Assembly: GCA_035288905.1 (NCBI GenBank)
Contig: DATDYZ010000001.1
Location: 19,172 to 83,171 of the forward strand
Length of the DNA: 64,000 nt
From: Candidatus Anderseniibacteriota bacterium
Lineage (GTDB): Bacteria > Patescibacteriota > Andersenbacteria > UBA10190
Direction of reading: 5' to 3'
In this document: piece by piece, positions 30,031 through 63,848 of the stretch
How positions within the stretch are numbered: the first letter of the stretch is position 1
Layout of the letters: the number at the start of each line of letters is the position of its first letter
The notes under the pieces: model-generated
Database searches by the model: none
What the model was told of the DNA's origin: nothing
What the model saw: the letters and a program-made list of their open reading frames with translations, nothing else
Made by a program: the position numbers and the translations under genes

Positions 30031-30444
30031 ATGAAACGAGCGACGTTATTCACAGACGGCGGGGCGAGGGGTAACCCGGGTCCCGCCGCAATCGGTTTTG
30101 TGCTTACTGGTATTGGAAGCGCGCCTATTTTATATAAAGAATATATTGGGAAAGGCACGAACAACCAGGCAGAGTATCGTGCGTTATTAGCGGGTATTAC
30201 TCGTGCAAAAAAAGAGGGAGTAAAAGATTTGTTGTGCTATTTAGATAGCGAATTAGTGGTAAAGCAGGTGCGAGGAGAATACAGAGTTAAAAATGAAGAG
30301 CTAAAACTTTTGCTTACAGAAATAAAAAAACTACTACCCGTTTTTGATTCTATAACATTCCAACACGTTCCGCGCGCTAAAAACGCTATTGCGGATAAGC
30401 TGGTGAATGAGGCGTTGGACTCCAATTTTGCAGATGGACTATAA
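30031..30444 (+). CDS. rnhA: Ribonuclease HI
   Basis: FTDGGARGNPGPAA, NNQAEYRAL and the DSELVVKQ catalytic DEDD pattern. Confidence 0.9.
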   Translation: MKRATLFTDGGARGNPGPAAIGFVLTGIGSAPILYKEYIGKGTNNQAEYRALLAGITRAKKEGVKDLLCYLDSELVVKQVRGEYRVKNEELKLLLTEIKKLLPVFDSITFQHVPRAKNAIADKLVNEALDSNFADGL

Positions 30445-30782
30445 GCCGGATTCTGTTAAAGGCAATCATCTGTCTTGTTCTGCTATCGCTAGCAGAATCT
30501 TTGCCCTCTACCTGCCCCGTTATTCACGAAGCGACTTGAGGTTGCACTCGGTGGGGTTTGCACCCTCGCCGTATTACTACGGCGCGGCGTGGGCTCTTAC
30601 CCCACGATTTCACCATTGCTAATAAAAGCTGTTTGTTTCTGTTGCGCTCTTCGCCCTGCAAGCAGGGTCCCTAGGCTTGCGCCTGGCAGACGTTATCTGC
30701 CACTGTTTTCTTGAGTGTCCGGACTTTCCTCTCAGGCCCTTCGATTTCTCTCAGGGTAAAGCGATTGCCCATCCATCTGCGT
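30425..30782 (-). ncRNA. rnpB: RNase P RNA (bacterial type), antisense to the last about 20 nt of rnhA
   Basis: The minus strand reads GAGGAAAGUCCGGAC (P4 5' strand), GGUAAGAGCCCAC, and ACAGAAUCCGGCUUAUAG near the 3' end. The P1 helix GCAGAUGGA / UCCAUCUGC defines the ends. Confidence 0.75.
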
Positions 30783-36268: not shown

Positions 36269-36269
36269 C

Positions 36270-36295
36270 TTATTCCAAGGCAAAGCCTTGGAATT
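36270..36295. repeat. REP-C palindrome TTCCAAGGCAAAGCCTTGGAA (inverted orientation relative to the two other copies)
   Basis: Perfect hairpin. Confidence 0.8.
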
Positions 36296-36322
36296 GCTTA
36301 TGAATTTGCTAGATATGCTAGA

Positions 36323-36961
36323 ATGATTGGGATTATATCTATGAACTGTAACGAATATCACATAATCGGAATGAGTCCTGGTAATAGCTATTTTAAGGAT
36401 GAAGAAATTCTTTACCTGCTCAAAACTACAATTGATCGTTTTGGTAAGGTAGCTATTTTAATTGCGGATATTCCTGCAATATCTACATACATAGCTTTGG
36501 GGTATCCAGAAAATCGAGCACGGCGTGATAAGGCCATACCAAAAGGCAATGCGTTAAAAAATCGCGTACGAAAAATAATGGCCAAGCTTGGTTATTCTGA
36601 GGATATTGTCAGAATTATTGATTGGGAACATGAAGTAGAAAATAATTCCGAGTATCAGAAAAGCTATCAAAATGTACTTGAATTATACAAGCAGAATCGA
36701 GCGTTTCATAGCGCTGCAGATACTACTACCTACTTAGTGCTTGAAAGCTCAAAAAAGGATTTTGATGACATTGAACTCGCCACTGGTATTGCGGTTCATT
36801 ATCTTTTATCAGAGTTTGCTTTTTTGGAGTTTGCGCCGAGCTTTTTGGAAGCAACAAAAGTTATTTATGTTTATCATAAAAACTGGCAAGTATACGAAGA
36901 TTATATCGCAGGTAAATTTGATCATGTCGTACGTCCAAATTTAGGTTTTCTATTACTATAG
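36323..36961 (+). CDS. Cyclodipeptide synthase (CDPS, AlbC/YvmC family)-like protein
   Basis: HIIGMSPGNSYF aligns with the AlbC HALIGISAGNSYF region (catalytic Ser). TYLVLE gives a Y..x3..E pair, and a later VYHKN gives a YH. Length (212 aa) is in the CDPS range. Confidence 0.55.
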   Translation: MIGIISMNCNEYHIIGMSPGNSYFKDEEILYLLKTTIDRFGKVAILIADIPAISTYIALGYPENRARRDKAIPKGNALKNRVRKIMAKLGYSEDIVRIIDWEHEVENNSEYQKSYQNVLELYKQNRAFHSAADTTTYLVLESSKKDFDDIELATGIAVHYLLSEFAFLEFAPSFLEATKVIYVYHKNWQVYEDYIAGKFDHVVRPNLGFLLL

Positions 36962-36980
36962 AATCCCTATGAAACGTAAG

Positions 36981-37010
36981 CTTATTCCAAGGCTTTGCCT
37001 TGGAATATAG
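36981..37010. repeat. REP-C palindrome TTCCAAGGCTTTGCCTTGGAA
   Basis: Perfect hairpin. Confidence 0.8.
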
Positions 37011-37035
37011 TCTATTTTGCGTATAATTACATTAT

Positions 37036-37701
37036 ATGAGTTATCGGCATGTGGGCTTTGCACCAGGTGAGATATATCACATATTCACTCGTGGCGTTGA
37101 GAAAAGAAAGATCTTTCTCTATGATGCTGATCGAATCCGTTTTCTTTCGCTCCTTGTGCATTGTTTACCACAAGGTCCAATCCAAAGTTTTTCTGTCGCG
37201 CAAAAACTCAAGCGAAAAACTGAGATTACCGCTTCTGGCGAAGGGCTAGTAGATATTCTCTGTTACTGCCTTATGAATAATCATATTCACCTGCTCCTGA
37301 AAGAAAATGTCGAAAAAGGTATTTCTATATACATGCAACGACTGCTCACTAGCTACGCTATGTATTTTAACAGAAGATCTGAGCGTTCAGGATCCTTATT
37401 TGTAAATCCGTTTAAGGCGGTTGTAGTTGATGCTGACGATCAATTCCTGCACGTCACTCGATATATTCATCTAAATCCGTTTGTTGCGCATCTGGTTGAA
37501 GACCCCTTTGGATATATTTGGTCTTCTTTACATGAATACACAGCTGCTTCACAAGAAAGTAAAATTTGTCACCCTGAATTACTCCGAGGAATAATGGGAC
37601 AACAGGAGTATCACCGTTTTGTGCTAGATCATGCCGACTATTCGCAGTCGCTTGTAGATAATTATCACCTTCTTATCGACATTGATGAAGAAGTGTCATA
37701 A
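37036..37701 (+). CDS. IS200/IS605-like HuH Y1 transposase (REP-associated tyrosine transposase, RAYT-like)
   Basis: HuH motif NNHIHLLL and the conserved tyrosine region TRYIHLNP. Flanked by REP-C copies. Confidence 0.8.
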   Translation: MSYRHVGFAPGEIYHIFTRGVEKRKIFLYDADRIRFLSLLVHCLPQGPIQSFSVAQKLKRKTEITASGEGLVDILCYCLMNNHIHLLLKENVEKGISIYMQRLLTSYAMYFNRRSERSGSLFVNPFKAVVVDADDQFLHVTRYIHLNPFVAHLVEDPFGYIWSSLHEYTAASQESKICHPELLRGIMGQQEYHRFVLDHADYSQSLVDNYHLLIDIDEEVS

Positions 37702-37705
37702 AGGC

Positions 37706-37735
37706 GTTATTCCAAGGCTTTGCCTTGGAATGCGT
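37706..37735. repeat. REP-C palindrome copy
   Basis: TTCCAAGGCTTTGCCTTGGAA. Confidence 0.8.
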
Positions 37736-37770
37736 TTGCTCACAACTTTTTCTGGGCGTATCATTTTTGT

Positions 37771-38364
37771 ATGAACGCATACAAAAGAATTGCTAACTTT
37801 TTATTCGAAATAGGGACGATGCGGAAGTTGCCTCGTATGCATCGGCAGATGCTGCTAACGGATGATGATTCTGATACTATTGCTTCTCATTCATACAGAG
37901 TTGCCATTATCGCGTGGATACTTGCTAAACAAGAGGGTGCAGATCCGTACAGATCCGTAATGATGGCGTTGCTTCACGATATTGCGGAAGCTCGAACAGG
38001 AGATCATAATTGGGTTCACAAAAAGTATGTAAAAATATTTGAAGATGAAGTGCACAAAGAACAGTTGAACGGCTTGCCTTTTCCGGAGCTGAAAGAATTT
38101 ATTGACGAGTATGTGAAGAGGGAAAGTAAAGAAGCCGTGGTTGCAAAGCATGCTGATCTTCTGGATCAAGTTTTGTTGCTTCGAGAATACGAATGGCAGG
38201 GAAATAAAGAGGCAACGGTGTGGCTACATGGCAAAGGAAAGACGAAAGGAAATGCACAGCTCAAGAAGCTAACTTTGAAACGGGCAAAGGAACTAGGAAA
38301 GGCAATATACAAAACATCTCCGTCTGCTTGGTGGGACGATTTGTGGACGAGCAAAAATCGGTAA
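37771..38364 (+). CDS. HD-domain phosphohydrolase (YfbR-like 5'-deoxynucleotidase family)
   Basis: H..R......LLHDIAE....D metal-binding pattern. Trimmed from track ORF 37720, which starts in the REP. Confidence 0.72.
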   Translation: MNAYKRIANFLFEIGTMRKLPRMHRQMLLTDDDSDTIASHSYRVAIIAWILAKQEGADPYRSVMMALLHDIAEARTGDHNWVHKKYVKIFEDEVHKEQLNGLPFPELKEFIDEYVKRESKEAVVAKHADLLDQVLLLREYEWQGNKEATVWLHGKGKTKGNAQLKKLTLKRAKELGKAIYKTSPSAWWDDLWTSKNR

Positions 38365-43804: not shown

Positions 43805-43814
43805 GCTAAAAACA

Positions 43815-43847
43815 GGAATCATTCCGACACCTGGTGTCGGAATCTTG
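43815..43847. repeat. REP-D palindrome TTCCGACACCTGGTGTCGGAA
   Basis: Perfect hairpin. Confidence 0.8.
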
Positions 43848-43863
43848 TGATAGAATATTTACT

Positions 43864-44523
43864 ATGGGGTATCGAATAAATGGGTTTGAGCGGGGCGGTG
43901 TATACCACATATTTACGCGCGGTGTGGAGAAGAGGGAAATTTTTATGGATCATTCCGATCGTGTACGGTTTATCTCGCAAATGATTCATTGCTTGCCCGA
44001 TGAGCCTATTCTGAATTTTTCGCATGCACAAAAACTAAAACGAAAGTTGATAATAACCAGCGAAGGGGAGGGGTTAGCGGATATTCTTTGTTATTGCTTA
44101 ATGAATAATCATGTTCATTTTTTGCTCCGAGAAAATGTTGATGGTGGTATTTCGCGCTATATGCAACGGCTGCTCAATAGCTTCGCTCGGTATTTTAATG
44201 TTAAATACGAGCGCACTGGGGCGTTATTTGCGGGTCCGTTTCGGTCTGTTCCTGTGGTAAGTGATGATCAGCTTTTGCACGTAAGTAGGTATATTCATCT
44301 TAATCCTCATGCTGCGCATATAGTAAAGGATGTCTTCGCATATCCCTGGTCCTCGTTACGTGCATACTTAAACGACGAAGATTCGAAACTTTATTGCCAC
44401 GCTGACTTTCTTGCGTCATTAATGGATAAAAAAGAATATAAAAAATTCGTTTTCGATCAAGTGAGTTACGAACAATCCTTAGCTGCTTTTCCTGAACTTC
44501 TTTTAGATGATGACTATACTTAA
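43864..44523 (+). CDS. HuH Y1 transposase (RAYT-like), second paralog
   Basis: VYHIFTRGVEKREIF, NNHVHFLL and SRYIHLNPH. Trimmed from track ORF 43834, which starts in the REP. Confidence 0.8.
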   Translation: MGYRINGFERGGVYHIFTRGVEKREIFMDHSDRVRFISQMIHCLPDEPILNFSHAQKLKRKLIITSEGEGLADILCYCLMNNHVHFLLRENVDGGISRYMQRLLNSFARYFNVKYERTGALFAGPFRSVPVVSDDQLLHVSRYIHLNPHAAHIVKDVFAYPWSSLRAYLNDEDSKLYCHADFLASLMDKKEYKKFVFDQVSYEQSLAAFPELLLDDDYT

Positions 44524-44570
44524 TTCCGACACCTGGTGTCGGAATAAGTTCCCTGGTGTCGGAATAAGTT
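44521..44570. repeat. REP-D palindrome plus tandem half-copy
   Basis: TTCCGACACCTGGTGTCGGAATAAGTTCCCTGGTGTCGGAATAAGTT. Confidence 0.75.
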
Positions 44571-44572
44571 CT

Positions 44573-44865
44573 TTTCTGGCCCGTTTCGTGCTGTAGCTGT
44601 TGTACGTGATGAGCAATTTCTTCACGTAAGTAGGTATATTCACTTGAATCCATATGCGGCCCATATGACAAAGGATCCGCTTACATATAAATGGTCTTCT
44701 CTTGGCGAGTACTTTTTAGATGAAAGCAATAAAACAGCTTCTTGCCACACGAACTTTCTATTATCGTTAATAAGCTCTAAAGAATACAGAAGTTTTGTTG
44801 CAGACTACGCAGAGTATGCTCAGTCTCTCGCAAGCTACCCAGAATTGCTTATAGACGATGAATAA
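44573..44865 (+). pseudogene. C-terminal fragment of a third RAYT paralog (lacks the HuH N-terminal half)
   Basis: It translates to FSGPFRAVAVVRDEQFLHVSRYIHLNPYAAHM..., which parallels residues about 125-229 of the upstream transposase. There is no N-terminal domain. Confidence 0.65.
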
Positions 44866-44870
44866 TTTGT

Positions 44871-44893
44871 ATTCCAACACCTGGTGTTGGAAT
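44871..44893. repeat. REP-D variant TTCCAACACCTGGTGTTGGAA
   Basis: Hairpin. Confidence 0.75.
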
Positions 44894-44935
44894 GAGGATT
44901 TGTTTCGTTTGAATAAAATCTGATACTATTTACTT

Positions 44936-45685
44936 GTGAATGAATTATTAGGAAAGTTGGAAATTGATGATGCCTTCGGTCAAGAAGTTTGGGATCATTT
45001 TAAGGGTGAGCGACACTTTGAGATTGTTGAGCGAGATGATGGATTTATTGATGCTGGTAGTTTTGGTGGGCTAGTTTATTTTGCGAAATTCGATGATTGG
45101 GAAAATATAGATAAAGAAGCAATAAAATATGCGAAGGGCAAAACCTTAGATATAGGATGTGGTGCTGGTCGTCATGCTCTATATCTTCAAAATAAAAAAT
45201 TTGACGTAACAGGTATTGATAACTCGCCATTGGCAATTAAAGTTTGTAAAGAGCGTGGACTAGAAAAAGCATTTGTATTGCCCATAGTCGAAGTTGAGAC
45301 ACTTCTGCCAGAAAAATTTGATAGTATATTACTGCTCGGTCATAACTTCGGTTTATTTGGAAGTTTTCAAGAGGCTCGATCATTGCTCGCTAAAATAGGG
45401 AATGTAACAAATCCTGGTGCAATTATTATTTCTACTACTCGGGATCCATATCAAAGCACTGAGGCAGTTCATGAAGAATATCAACAAAAGAATCTAGCAG
45501 AAGGGCGCATGGGCGGACAACTTAGACTTCGTATTCGCCACAAAAAATTAATAGGTTCTTGGTTTAATTATCTTTTTGTGTCCAAAGAAGAGCTTAAACA
45601 TATTGTGGAAGGTTCTGGTTGGAAAGTTAAAGAATTTATTGGTAATGAAGAGCCAGAATACGGTGTTATTTTGGAAAAGGAGTGA
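44936..45685 (+). CDS. Class I SAM-dependent methyltransferase
   Basis: Motif I LDIGCGAGRHALYL and motif post-I DVTGIDNS. Confidence 0.75.
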   Translation: MNELLGKLEIDDAFGQEVWDHFKGERHFEIVERDDGFIDAGSFGGLVYFAKFDDWENIDKEAIKYAKGKTLDIGCGAGRHALYLQNKKFDVTGIDNSPLAIKVCKERGLEKAFVLPIVEVETLLPEKFDSILLLGHNFGLFGSFQEARSLLAKIGNVTNPGAIIISTTRDPYQSTEAVHEEYQQKNLAEGRMGGQLRLRIRHKKLIGSWFNYLFVSKEELKHIVEGSGWKVKEFIGNEEPEYGVILEKE

Positions 45686-45727
45686 TTTATTGAATGAAAA
45701 CTGTAGGGTGTACAGGTTTTTGTGCCG

Positions 45728-45750
45728 ATTCTAACACCAGGTGTTAGAAT
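45728..45750. repeat. REP-D variant TTCTAACACCAGGTGTTAGAA
   Basis: Hairpin. Confidence 0.7.
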
Positions 45751-46079
45751 GGATAGTGGTTTGTACCGTTTCTCCCGCTTGCGCTATCGGAATTTTCCAA
45801 AAAACGTGGTATGCTCAATGTATGAAAAAGAAACATCAAAATGGTGACACTCCAGCTACACAGCACGATCTTGAGATACTTGGTGGACATTTGTCTTCAA
45901 GAATTGATGACGTAGAGGCAAGTATTTCTAGTCTTAGGTATGTAGTAGAATCTATTTTAAGCGTTGTACAATCAATTGAAGGAAGGTTTCAAGAAACTAA
46001 GGGAGATCATGAACGAGTTGAAAGGCACGAAGAACGCATCACGGCGGTTGAGGTTCAAGTGAGAATGCTCCAGAAATAA
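45741..46079 (+). CDS. Hypothetical small coiled-coil protein
   Basis: The ORF's listed start lies inside the REP, so the real start may be the later MKKKHQ (about 45819). I recognise no family. Confidence 0.35.
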   Translation: MLEWIVVCTVSPACAIGIFQKTWYAQCMKKKHQNGDTPATQHDLEILGGHLSSRIDDVEASISSLRYVVESILSVVQSIEGRFQETKGDHERVERHEERITAVEVQVRMLQK

Positions 46080-46123
46080 AAGATTGAAATAATTAGAAAA
46101 CCGTGGTATTTTCATGGAATTGT

Positions 46124-63735: not shown

Positions 63736-63848
63736 TCCCTTCTCCCCAATTGGGGAGAAGGTGCCTCGCCAGAGCGGGCGGATGAGGGCAGGACACAACG
63801 CTACAACAGCCCTCACCCCAACCCTCTCCCCCCATGGGGAGAGGGGGT
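63736..63848. repeat. Family B composite repeat
   Basis: CCCTTCTCCCCAATTGGGGAGAAGG ... ACAACAGCCCTCACCCC ... CCCTCTCCCCCCATGGGGAGAGGGGG. Confidence 0.75.

Follow-up and report, generated by a model that had tools for sequence, protein, structure and literature searches.

A predicted cyclodipeptide synthase, truncated from a two-domain fusion, in a REP-bounded insertion of a Candidatus Andersenbacteria genome

Described CDPSs and RAYT/REP systems

The Parcubacteria enzyme ParcuCDPS (from RAAC4_OD1_1) has been biochemically characterised and crystallised (PMC5816076, PMC7613923); tRNA-hijacking cyclodipeptide synthases (CDPSs) are therefore established in the reduced genomes of the candidate phyla radiation (CPR). 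The NYH subfamily is defined by N40, Y202 and H203 in AlbC numbering (PMC7613923). Some NYH enzymes are fused to "ABC-transporter domains" (PMC5816076), which is the sole mention of such fusions that we found; a literature search that paired CDPSs either with "candidate phyla radiation" or with solute-binding domains found no paper in the library searched. A CDPS domain taken out of a fusion with a P450 is active on its own (PMC5816076). In RAYT/REP systems, a REPIN is an inverted REP doublet with a 34–110 bp spacer that pairs into a hairpin (PMC3337134). Our search of that library for RAYTs in Patescibacteria found no description.

The DNA analyzed here (the window) is a 64 kb stretch from Candidatus Andersenbacteria, a host that bears out the CPR-like genome recognized by the first-pass annotation. 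A CDPS had been considered unexpected in such a genome, which is contradicted by ParcuCDPS and by the NYH clade of the window CDPS, with its more than 200 clusters at 90% identity, mostly from Patescibacteria. Close relatives were found in CPR bacteria, Melainabacteria and DPANN archaea, and NCBI already holds an identical protein, named CDPS, from a Candidatus Andersenbacteria MAG. The window gene represents a previously known type of CDPS that is common among reduced bacteria such as the CPR.

The CDPS domain and its lost C-terminal partner

The CDPS gene (36323..36961, forward strand) encodes an NYH subfamily protein of 212 amino acids and carries HIIGMSPGNSYF; NCBI and most gene callers choose M7 (36341), the probable start, giving 206 amino acids. 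The ORF matches Pfam PF16715 with 101.1 bits (E 1e-28; cut-off 27) and TIGR04539 with 123.6 bits (cut-off 45), and its sequence matches in the PDB include YvmC (6e-14), BtCDPS (3e-13) and AlbC (5e-6). The AlphaFold (AF2) model has a pLDDT of 94.9. When the model was compared with the PDB by Foldseek, the best 47 matches were all CDPSs, followed by TyrRS, and TM scores ranged from 0.76–0.82 for the best CDPSs down to 0.60 for ParcuCDPS. The model has the Rossmann-like fold that is related to class Ic aminoacyl-tRNA synthetases. The alignment with BtCDPS extends to residue 228 of 232, so that the fold is complete.

In our alignment, S18, N21, Y160, E164, Y184 and H185 correspond to AlbC S37, N40, Y178, E182, Y202 and H203, respectively, and all are invariant across 33 relatives. 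N21, Y184 and H185 occupy the positions that define the NYH subfamily, so the protein is assigned to the NYH type. The serine and the YH pair proposed by the first-pass annotation do align with AlbC, but its choice of TYLVLE as the catalytic Y/E pair was rejected: Y137 and E141 of that motif fall at AlbC positions 154 and 158, on the P2-pocket helix and 47 residues ahead of Y184, whereas Y160 and E164 sit in HYLLSEF, 24 residues ahead of Y184, which equals the AlbC Y178–Y202 spacing. The pocket motifs (P1, IGLAWFLY; P2, TLVSKWQ) fit no predictable specificity group in Table 2 of Gondry 2018. As judged from profile matches, the modeled fold and the catalytic residues, all of which agree with the identification first proposed, ORF 36323..36961 encodes a genuine tRNA-dependent CDPS of the NYH type, with cyclodipeptide synthesis as its predicted activity. 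By analogy with the family, a first aminoacyl-tRNA would acylate Ser18 in pocket P1, a second in pocket P2 would yield the dipeptidyl-enzyme, and Y160, E164 and Y184 would help cyclization to a 2,5-diketopiperazine.

The usual form among close relatives is an ~470-amino-acid protein in which a C-terminal amino-acid-binding domain (SBP_bac_3) is fused to the CDPS, and CDPS+SBP_bac_3 proteins of 450–508 amino acids are encoded at ~45 of 68 genome loci. These proteins read LLL-ENPYET-(F/Y)NPIW and continue into the SBP_bac_3 domain (~260 amino acids), which retains the carboxylate-binding Arg of a WPTPER motif. The ENPYET linker is invariant in 36 fusion proteins, a hint that the two domains are tightly coupled. 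Visible breakage also affects other members of the fused clade, namely a frameshift in L074, disruption of L064 and splitting of P0011/P0265.

The window CDPS nests within the fused clade in a neighbour-joining tree. It reads ...GFLLL-TAG-NPYET-TAA, with the protein ending at residue 212 and a scar (36959..36979, forward strand) made up of TAG, the in-frame codons AAT CCC TAT GAA ACG (NPYET) and TAA. Only the NPYET codons are left past the TAG, and a search across the 64 kb window found no SBP remnant at E≤0.5. The position in the tree and the TAG-NPYET remnant followed by a REP palindrome therefore identify the gene as a truncated CDPS-SBP_bac_3 fusion that lost its C-terminal domain exactly where the palindrome sits. 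The first-pass annotation had missed this truncation. We found no intermediate genome in which this slot carries the full-length fusion, so that the order of insertion, RAYT arrival and deletion is a proposed one.

A private insertion bounded by REP palindromes

The palindrome next to the scar belongs to a family that we call REP-A, a 21 bp perfect palindrome with the form TTCCAAGGC-AAA/TTT-GCCTTGGAA. Three copies occur in the 64 kb and nowhere else in it, and dinucleotide shuffles gave none, even with two mismatches allowed; these palindromes are short, extragenic and dispersed, as REPs are, with three copies in the window versus zero expected. Copy 1 (36273..36293; TTCCAAGGC-AAA-GCCTTGGAA) lies 4 nt past the stop of a GT4 gene and forms a hairpin of −15.2 kcal/mol (z −4.5). 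Copy 2 (36985..37005; TTT loop) has an 11 bp stem (36983–37007) and begins 8 nt beyond the point where the CDPS-SBP frame breaks off. This copy scores as terminator-like, and its right arm contains TTGGAA, a −35-like hexamer, which is part of a candidate promoter (37000..37027, forward strand; TTGGAA-16 nt-TATAAT, with 10 of 12 consensus matches) that ends 9 nt upstream of the start codon of the next gene, RAYT1. Copy 3 (37710..37730) also has a TTT loop. Because the loop is AAA in copy 1 and TTT in copies 2 and 3, the pair around the CDPS is inverted; the opposite orientation noted at first thus holds, but the center is AAA/TTT and not "(A/T)TT". A REPIN-like arrangement had also been proposed and was rejected, since a 691 bp interval that includes a protein-coding gene separates the inverted copies 1 and 2, against spacers of 34–110 bp in REPINs (PMC3337134). 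On metagenome contig L099, REP-A, a RAYT homologue and REP-A follow one another in the same order as in the window. REP-A, REP-B and a REP-C-like palindrome also follow an unrelated gene at another locus (L075/L105), from a sample in which this species is present.

The segment REP-CDPS-REP-RAYT-REP (36269–37731) is a single lineage-specific, low-GC insertion in a variable slot, with copies 1 and 3 of REP-A at its left and right edges; the association of CDPS and RAYT-like gene in one REP-bounded unit, already noticed in the first pass, therefore stands. The slot lies in a conserved cell-envelope gene cluster. In the syntenic relatives L108/L109, a DUF4012 gene follows 35 bp after the GT4 gene, and in L106 and L107 the slot is occupied by other genes; in L106–L109 the slot contained no CDPS, no RAYT and no palindromes of at least 10 bp. 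Homology to relatives ends at REP-A copies 1 and 3, and upstream of the HD gene homology to L107 restarts just past copy 3. The GC content is 37% in the insertion versus 42–45% in the backbone.

RAYT1 (37036..37701, forward strand) encodes an intact IS200-like HUH/Y1 protein of 221 amino acids. Its HUH motif (H83-I-H85) and its tyrosine (Y143, in YIHLNP) are invariant in four homologues, and no sequence relative was found in the PDB at E≤1. The protein scores 31.9 bits against Pfam Y1_Tnp (cut-off 23) and 43.2 bits against the NCBIfam equivalog NF047646, below the cut-off of 80; by these scores RAYT1 is classed as a divergent RAYT relative and not as an equivalog. RAYT genes have their own REPs as flanks, and RAYT1 lies between the REP-A copies at 36985 and 37710. 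It is followed by an HD_3/YfbR-like phosphohydrolase gene (37771..38364, forward strand; 197 amino acids, true ATG at 37771), so that the order of an IS200-like Y1 gene with a REP on each side and then an HD phosphohydrolase gene was read correctly in the first pass. The HD gene is present in the same variable slot of L107, where it is 90.9% identical.

A second slot lies 6 kb away. RAYT2 (43864..44523, forward strand; 219 amino acids from the gene callers' ATG at 43864) is 58% identical to RAYT1 and has the motifs H93-V-H95 and Y153, as numbered on the 229-amino-acid ORF from GTG 43834. It has its own palindrome family, REP-B (ATTCCGACACC-W-GGTGTCGGAAT and variants), with copies at 43821 and 44523 as flanks. 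The first (43821..43843; ATTCCGACACC-T-GGTGTCGGAAT) bounds the second insertion slot on its left, and the other is part of a full plus half copy (44523..44562; full 44523–44545, half ~44548–44562). A 3′ fragment of a third RAYT copy (44569..44865, forward strand) matches residues ~121–227 and is 50–59% identical to RAYT1 and RAYT2. Two RAYT paralogues and one fragment, none identical, are thus present within 8 kb; RAYTs are typically single per genome and without identical duplicates. An IS200/IS605 insertion sequence was rejected, as there are no identical copies in the window and the identical protein is at one location on every contig that has it.

Beyond the fragment, a class I SAM methyltransferase gene (44936..45685, forward strand) has REP-B variants on both sides, at 44871..44893 (ATTCCAACACC-T-GGTGTTGGAAT) and 45728..45750 (ATTCTAACACC-A-GGTGTTAGAAT, with an inverted center). 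The REP-flanked class I methyltransferase of the first-pass annotation is therefore present, but its palindromes belong to another family, that of RAYT2, and not to REP-A. The gene is missing from the syntenic relatives L108/L109. In both slots, which share one envelope-gene cluster, a RAYT paralogue is accompanied by its own REPs and a REP-bracketed low-GC gene that syntenic relatives are without.

The CDPS neighborhood was also compared across homologues. REP, RAYT, the HD gene and the methyltransferase are absent from all 72 CDPS homologue loci. When 814 neighboring ORFs from 71 CDPS loci were clustered, nothing was recurrent except an Lrp/AsnC regulator (seven DPANN loci), and no oxidase, P450, methyltransferase or HD partner was among them. 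The HD phosphohydrolase is not a conserved CDPS partner, and the methyltransferase, once suggested as a tailoring enzyme, was rejected because it does not co-occur with CDPSs in other genomes. No cyclodipeptide oxidase or P450 gene was found near the window CDPS, consistent with the first reading.

Competing readings and comparison with known systems

The reading that we prefer, with a probability of roughly three in four, is that the gene is a genuine CDPS whose fusion was cut at a REP, that it lies in a private insertion and that it is likely still active. In this Candidatus Andersenbacteria species, the fusion was cut just past the conserved ENPYET linker, at a break that abuts the REP palindrome of the adjacent RAYT-like HUH/Y1 gene. 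The REPs, probably RAYT substrates, mark the edges of the insertion and of the deletion and double as 3′-end hairpins; we infer that REP/RAYT had a role in the deletion. The truncated CDPS most likely still makes a cyclodipeptide, because nothing is missing from its catalytic domain and no decay is seen there, and would do so without any control or coupling that came from the lost domain.

The counterpoint is that the cut may have happened recently and that the intact-looking gene may be dead. The ORF would then be a non-functional relic of SBP_bac_3 loss and of a nonsense codon five codons ahead of the junction, with the frame open only since the event is recent. Such a history fits the extra TAG within the remnant and a cut that falls precisely on the linker between the domains, and it fits the broken state of L074, L064 and P0011/P0265. 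A promoter scan also found no strong promoter-like site from REP-A copy 1 to the CDPS start codon. Strong conservation of the linker and the SBP domain across the fused clade implies that they are functionally coupled to the CDPS, and the remnant would be inactive if folding, delivery of substrate or activation requires the SBP domain. However, 66 of the 66 invariant or near-invariant CDPS-domain positions (reference, 36 fusion proteins) are kept in the window gene, the frame has no internal stop or frameshift and the fold is complete. Stand-alone CDPSs of the same family occur in CPR and DPANN lineages, and the activity of a CDPS domain excised from another fusion (PMC5816076) likewise speaks against a relic. 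The same sequence is also fixed in several samples; the strains compared are 99.98% identical, with 3–4 SNPs in 20 kb and none within the CDPS. We consider the relic unlikely.

We give little credence to the CDPS as cargo of a REP/RAYT mobile unit, either a REPIN-like doublet or a REPtron with a passenger, in which the RAYT would excise and reinsert the REP and gene together as single-stranded DNA. Compared with syntenic genomes, the inserted DNA is indeed bounded in full by inverted REP-A copies and includes an intact RAYT that has both the HUH and the Y motif, and the second slot repeats the theme with RAYT2, REP-B and a REP-bracketed methyltransferase absent from relatives, with low GC in both cargo regions. 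Movement of REP and gene as a unit, as suggested in the first pass, is nevertheless contradicted by the homologue survey, in which REP-A, RAYT or a shared neighbor was found at 0 of 72 loci and a perfect palindrome of at least 9 bp within 200 bp of the CDPS gene ends at only 8 of 68. Exact look-ups of the RAYT1 and HD proteins revealed no second genomic site for the cassette, and all 15 contigs with an identical protein represent the same location. REPIN spacers form hairpins and do not enclose a 691 bp gene (PMC3337134), published descriptions have RAYTs mobilising REPINs, but neither genes nor themselves (PMC5581495), and the gene is broken, which a deletion at the REP fits better than capture.

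It is similarly improbable that the palindromes are just hairpins of the ordinary type at gene ends, acting as terminators or stabilising mRNA, unlinked to the Y1 proteins and incidental near the CDPS. All three palindrome families do lie 0 to ~43 nt past stops, mostly within ~25 nt, they form stable hairpins of −13 to −20 kcal/mol and REP-A copy 2 resembles a terminator. Against this, the two RAYT paralogues each have a separate palindrome family at their flanks, the same REP-A core flanks a distant homologue of the RAYT (31% identity) in another metagenome, syntenic relatives that lack a RAYT lack such palindromes at the same gene ends, and a T-tract is absent from most copies.

The weight of these findings is limited, since a CDPS annotation for the protein already exists, CDPSs from CPR bacteria are known and only one species shows this REP/RAYT context. 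The locus does offer a dated, base-resolved case of a REP/RAYT element at the break of a two-domain gene. The empty-site comparison in sister genomes, together with the parallel slot nearby, gives rare natural evidence on RAYT/REP effects on neighboring genes, from a phylum for which we found no description of such systems. RAYT/REP may here bracket, trim and possibly move protein-coding accessory genes, beyond scattering palindromes, although this is a long shot; if the RAYT mobilizes or deletes DNA between REPs, the result would be a REPtron with passenger genes, which would be a route for reduced episymbiont genomes to gain and remodel accessory functions. The locus also points to a sizeable, uncharacterised clade of CDPS fusions to amino-acid-binding domains in Patescibacteria, Melainabacteria and DPANN archaea, which may link amino-acid sensing to diketopiperazine signaling in host-dependent organisms. 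The natural "domain deletion" in the window would make a ready control for the role of the fused domain.

The known RAYT/REP systems are E. coli TnpA-REP, the Pseudomonas RAYTs with REPINs and the "REPtron". Like them, the window combines a small HUH/Y1 protein with short palindromes as flanks, a separate REP family for each paralogue, and REPs that are extragenic and located at gene 3′ ends (PMC3337134, PMC5581495). It differs in that its REPs are perfect palindromes and single, not REPIN doublets, that protein-coding genes lie between REP copies and that the host is a CPR bacterium.

Among CDPSs, the window protein shares with ParcuCDPS its origin in a CPR genome, but ParcuCDPS belongs to the XYP subfamily, has no SBP fusion and gives no sequence match at E≤1 (TM 0.60). 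YvmC from Bacillus licheniformis (PDB: 3OQH) and BtCDPS (PDB: 7AZU) are closer, with the same fold (TM 0.79–0.82), the catalytic Ser/Tyr/Glu/Tyr, the N/Y/H signature and a catalytic domain of similar length. Identity to these two is only 22%–23%, and pocket residues W101 and Y182 (AlbC positions 119 and 200, respectively) differ. The window CDPS, unlike YvmC and BtCDPS, has a CPR host and a two-domain ancestor and lacks a cytochrome P450 partner of the CypX kind; in Bacillus, CypX acts as the cyclodipeptide oxidase in the pulcherriminic-acid pathway. The CDPS-SBP_bac_3 fusions of Patescibacteria, Melainabacteria and some DPANN archaea (e.g., P0253, L003 and L004), annotated merely as "tRNA-dependent cyclodipeptide synthase", are 55%–73% identical to the window protein in the CDPS domain; relative to them, the window gene is without the ~260-amino-acid SBP domain and keeps NPYET as the remnant of the linker.

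The CDPS gene and its relatives

The ORF at 36323..36961 (plus strand) encodes a 212-amino-acid product that starts MIGIISMNCNEYHIIGMSPGNSYF, with the probable start at M7 (36341). The first-pass annotation had called it a cyclodipeptide synthase (CDPS), and family HMMs bear this out, with Pfam CDPS (PF16715) matching at 101 bits (E = 1e-28; cut-off 27) and NCBIfam TIGR04539 at 123.6 bits (cut-off 45). Sequence matches in the PDB were YvmC (6e-14), BtCDPS (3e-13), AlbC (5e-6), and Rv2275 (6e-5). The fold agreed with the same assignment: for an AlphaFold2 model that drew on 33 relatives (mean pLDDT 94.9), the top 47 Foldseek matches in the PDB were all CDPSs (TM 0.76–0.82 for the best ones), followed by tyrosyl-tRNA synthetases.

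HMMER alignment to AlbC pairs S37, N40, Y178, E182, Y202, and H203 of that enzyme with S18, N21, Y160, E164, Y184, and H185 of the window CDPS, and all six are invariant among its relatives. By the definition in PMC7613923, these residues, N21, Y184, and H185 among them, place the protein in the NYH subfamily. The Ser/Tyr/Glu/Tyr set anticipated by the annotation aligns with AlbC, but the Y-x3-E pair had been misplaced. The TYLVLE motif (Y137/E141) aligns with AlbC 154/158 on the P2-pocket helix, and the true pair lies within HYLLSEF, 24 residues ahead of Y184, the same spacing as in AlbC. Pocket positions were taken from PMC5816076; P1 comprises I14, G16, L46, A48, W101, F167, L168, and Y182, and P2 comprises T135, L138, V139, S142, K186, W188, and Q189. 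These residues matched none of the specificity groups tabulated in that paper, so the product is not predictable; a hydrophobic or aromatic first substrate would only be a guess from the hydrophobic P1 pocket.

A CDPS had been considered surprising in a reduced, CPR-like genome, a view that the databases do not sustain. NCBI holds a protein from a Candidatus Andersenbacteria MAG that is identical from M7 onward and annotated as a CDPS. A protein search returned 214 clusters at 50–73% identity, and 226 of 1.84 billion 50%-identity representatives matched at E ≤ 1e-10 (37 at E ≤ 1e-30). Scanning one genome per species gave 71 homologue loci, with bacterial CPR hosts (Moranii-, Uhr-, Nomura-, Kerfeld-, Falkow-, Berkel-, Taylor-, Peri-, and Andersenbacteria, Paceibacterota, and Absconditabacterales), Melainabacteria/Obscuribacterales, and Woese-, Micr-, and Nanoarchaeota. 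The CDPS of Parcubacteria bacterium RAAC4_OD1_1 makes cyclo(His-Pro) and cyclo(His-Glu) (PMC5816076) and has a crystal structure (PMC7613923; PDB: 7QB8), although it is of the XYP type, whereas the window CDPS is NYH, and the two are only distant kin (TM 0.60).

At seven loci, apparently of DPANN archaea (L060–L068; e.g., L063:4770-5804, minus strand, on a Nanoarchaeota contig), a stand-alone CDPS gene lies no more than 300 bp from a gene for a tandem-HTH Lrp/AsnC-type regulator. Regulators of this type are amino-acid-responsive, and this one could be the separate-gene counterpart of the amino-acid-binding domain that is fused to the CDPS elsewhere.

Truncation of a CDPS-SBP_bac_3 fusion

Among 68 genome loci where a gene could be called, approximately 45 encode proteins of 450–508 amino acids in which Pfam finds CDPS followed by the amino-acid-binding domain SBP_bac_3 (PF00497). 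Examples of about 470 amino acids are L003–L055 (e.g., L004:6001-7440) and P0241–P0295; the fusion occurs across both Patescibacteria and Melainabacteria, and at least one of its contigs carries the label Woesearchaeota. Public names, where there are any, mention CDPS alone. The C-terminal half is similar to proteins that bind polar amino acids (AncCDT-1, 2e-12; Foldseek TM 0.87), its carboxylate-binding Arg in the WPTPER motif is invariant, and as a query it matches almost only CDPS-SBP fusions. The AlphaFold2 model of one fusion, P0253, has a pLDDT of 89.6 and a pTM of 0.82. Gondry et al. (PMC5816076) remark in passing that some NYH CDPSs bear C-terminal "ABC-transporter domains," which are probably this fusion, and we found no paper on the fusion clade beyond that remark. 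Two fusions are split: the closest relative of the window CDPS (L074:3127-11426; 73% identical) is frameshifted into 303 and 184 amino acids and directly adjoins ArgRS, IleRS, and class Ic (tRNA-synt_1b) synthetase genes, and P0011/P0265 lies on a 142-kb contig.

Between the two halves of the fusion runs a linker, ENPYET(Y/F)NPxW, that varies little or not at all across 36 fusion proteins. The corresponding frame of the window is ...RPNLGFLLL-TAG-AAT CCC TAT GAA ACG-TAA, that is, LLL*NPYET* (asterisks, stops). A neighbor-joining tree of CDPS domains places the window protein within the fused clade, beside L003 (fused) and L064 (disrupted), with stand-alone CDPSs from DPANN archaea and one CPR group in basal positions. 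No trace of an SBP domain was found in a search across the 64-kb window. TAG is an ordinary stop here because six long ORFs end in it (TAA, 21; TGA, 8). Given the linker remnant, the nesting in the fused clade, the lack of an SBP trace, and the normal TAG stop, the window gene descends from a CDPS-SBP fusion and has secondarily been truncated at its C-terminal end.

The catalytic domain itself reads as a complete CDPS without decay. Of the positions at which the fusion proteins show invariance or 90% conservation, it keeps all 66; by the same measure, genuine members keep a median of 97% in a leave-one-out comparison. The alignment also extends to the last residues of BtCDPS. A CDPS domain isolated from a CDPS-P450 fusion is active (Gondry et al., PMC5816076).

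REP palindromes, RAYT genes, and variable slots

Only three families of perfect palindromes of at least 10 bp with short loops were found in a scan of the whole window. REP-A is a 21-bp perfect palindrome, TTCCAAGGC-NNN-GCCTTGGAA, with exactly three copies in 64 kb: at 36273 (loop AAA), 4 nt past the stop of a conserved GT4 glycosyltransferase gene; at 36985 (loop TTT), 23 nt past the stop of the CDPS ORF and beginning eight bases past the end of the LLL*NPYET* frame; and at 37710 (loop TTT), 8 nt past the stop of the transposase-like gene at 37036..37701. Dinucleotide shuffles gave zero REP-A matches, even with two mismatches allowed. REP-B (ATTCCGACACC-W-GGTGTCGGAAT and variants) occurs at 43821, 44523, 44871, and 45728, with a half copy near 44548. 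REP-C (CCCTCTCCCCAATTGGGGAGAGGG, 12-bp arms) occupies six sites (15148, 15425, 58753, 61432, 63738, and 63822), mostly a few nucleotides past stop codons, and has no cognate RAYT within the window. Hairpin stabilities range from -13 to -20 kcal/mol. REP-A copy 2 is terminator-like, and TTGGAA in its right arm resembles a -35 hexamer, with TATAAT 16 nt downstream, ahead of the RAYT gene (37000-37027). The pair ranks first among promoter-like sites in the region, as a consensus match only, and the copy may supply the -35 element of a RAYT1 promoter.

RAYT1 (37036..37701, plus strand; 221 amino acids) and RAYT2 (43864..44523, plus strand; 58% identical to RAYT1) both exceed the Pfam Y1_Tnp threshold, and each is bracketed by its own palindrome family. 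Both carry the HUH motif (H83-x-H85) and the tyrosine motif YIHLNP (Y143), neither of which varies among four homologues. Against the NCBIfam RAYT equivalog model, the Y1 proteins scored 43 bits (E = 3e-11), under its cut-off of 80, and no sequence relatives of either were found in the PDB.

Genome relatives, found via the neighboring DUF4012 protein (68–72% identical), have contigs syntenic with the window over more than 20 kb, in the order Bac_transf, GT4, 211-aa ORF, GT4, GT4, then DUF4012, MurJ, ALG3-like GT, and LepA. Between the last GT4 and DUF4012, L108 and L109 have 35 bp, L106 a 162-aa ORF, and L107 a 157-aa ORF plus an HD gene; the window has REP-A, CDPS, REP-A, RAYT1, REP-A, and HD. 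Nucleotide homology 5' of HD restarts immediately right of REP-A copy 3. Because the homology edges fall at copies 1 and 3, the segment 36269-37731 is a lineage-specific insertion with inverted REP-A copies at its ends; it is 37% GC, compared with 42%–45% for the backbone. CDPS and RAYT1 thus reside together in a single REP-bounded segment, and a REP lies where the CDPS gene breaks off. The second slot (43805-46100; GC 36%–38%), between the ALG3-like GT gene and LepA, runs REP-B, RAYT2, REP-B, half REP-B, a RAYT 3' fragment from a third copy, REP-B variant, a REP-bracketed class I methyltransferase, REP-B variant, and finally a small ORF. L108 and L109 lack it, and in them LepA follows the ALG3-like GT gene after 32 bp with no gene between. 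L106 and L107 have no ALG3-like GT gene, and LepA follows MurJ, with an NYN-domain gene between them in L106. Neither a RAYT nor a palindrome of at least 10 bp was found in these slots of the four relatives.

In the sister genomes, the same variable slots are filled by unrelated ORFs without Pfam matches (L106:9429-9917, 162 aa; L107:8800-9273, 157 aa; L107:6801-7466, 221 aa), which makes the GT4|DUF4012 junction a gene-turnover hot spot in this Andersenbacteria lineage. The HD_3 phosphohydrolase gene (37771-38364; true ATG at 37771) is 90.9% identical to L107:9389-9979, compared with 75%–86% for flanking backbone proteins, and is absent from two other relatives, a pattern that points either to a recent exchange or to unusually tight constraint. 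Elsewhere in the window, the sole Rfam family found was a bacterial class A RNase P RNA (30426-30780, minus strand; 211.5 bits), and no tRNA genes were found in the 64 kb.

The proposal that REP plus gene moves as a unit found no support, since the homologue loci lack RAYT and REP-A and all copies of the arrangement that were found are alike. RAYT1 and RAYT2 had no tblastn match at the 71 CDPS loci; among the neighbors, GT4 and the methyltransferase matched only weakly, and HD had no match there, its one match being in the syntenic relative L107. REP-A is absent from all of these CDPS homologue loci, palindromes near CDPS gene ends are uncommon (8 of 68), and the closest relative adjoins synthetase genes instead. 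Exact-protein look-ups of RAYT1 and HD led to 15 contigs, drawn from several samples; every one of them keeps the window's gene order and is 99.5%–100% identical to it.

REP-A itself was found on 31 contigs in a scan of public metagenomes. L099 has a 31%-identical RAYT homologue between two REP-A cores, and L088 a single REP-A 2 kb from another RAYT homologue. L075 and L105 are one locus from two samples, and the JGI sample of L075 also holds the window species; there, REP-A (7 nt past the stop of an Mfd/RecG-like helicase gene), half and full REP-B, and a REP-C-like palindrome stand in a row in one intergenic region (L105:2030-2275 = L075:3289-3475). Mosaic clusters of REP copies, known as BIMEs, are described in enterobacteria, and on the evidence of this locus, the palindromes are dispersed and clustered in a BIME manner.

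Proposed history and relation to known systems

The most likely starting point is a CDPS-SBP fusion gene, probably gained horizontally given its low GC and scattered phylogeny, that lay in one variable slot within the envelope-gene cluster. A RAYT and its REPs would then have come to adjoin it, and a deletion that ended on one side at a REP would have removed the SBP-coding half and everything after it, up to the HD gene, through either RAYT-mediated single-strand cleavage and joining or recombination between REP copies. The remaining domain most likely still joins two aminoacyl-tRNA-borne residues as a cyclodipeptide, following the Ser-acyl ping-pong mechanism known from AlbC (PMC5816076). 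We put the probability that the window CDPS retains activity at roughly 55%–60%. The main alternative is that a recent event left the gene as an inactive relic.

The CDPS/REP/RAYT region described in the first-pass annotation is real, with small corrections. What deserves attention is the truncation, at a point marked by a REP, that a fusion gene has undergone, seen against empty sites in sister genomes; the second slot, which parallels the first with RAYT2, REP-B, and a methyltransferase; and the uncharacterized clade of CDPS-amino-acid-binding fusions in CPR, Melainabacteria, and DPANN to which the window gene points. The Y1 proteins and palindromes fit the RAYT/REP concept (PMC3337134; PMC5581495). 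The CDPS gene had been taken to sit in a REPIN-like arrangement, but a REPIN is an inverted doublet with a 34–110 bp hairpin spacer (PMC3337134), whereas the inverted REP-A copies stand 691 bp apart with a gene between them; the REP-C pair at 63738 and 63822, with starts 84 bp apart, could be a true REPIN-like doublet. The CDPS and the RAYT/REP genes belong to kinds that are already known.
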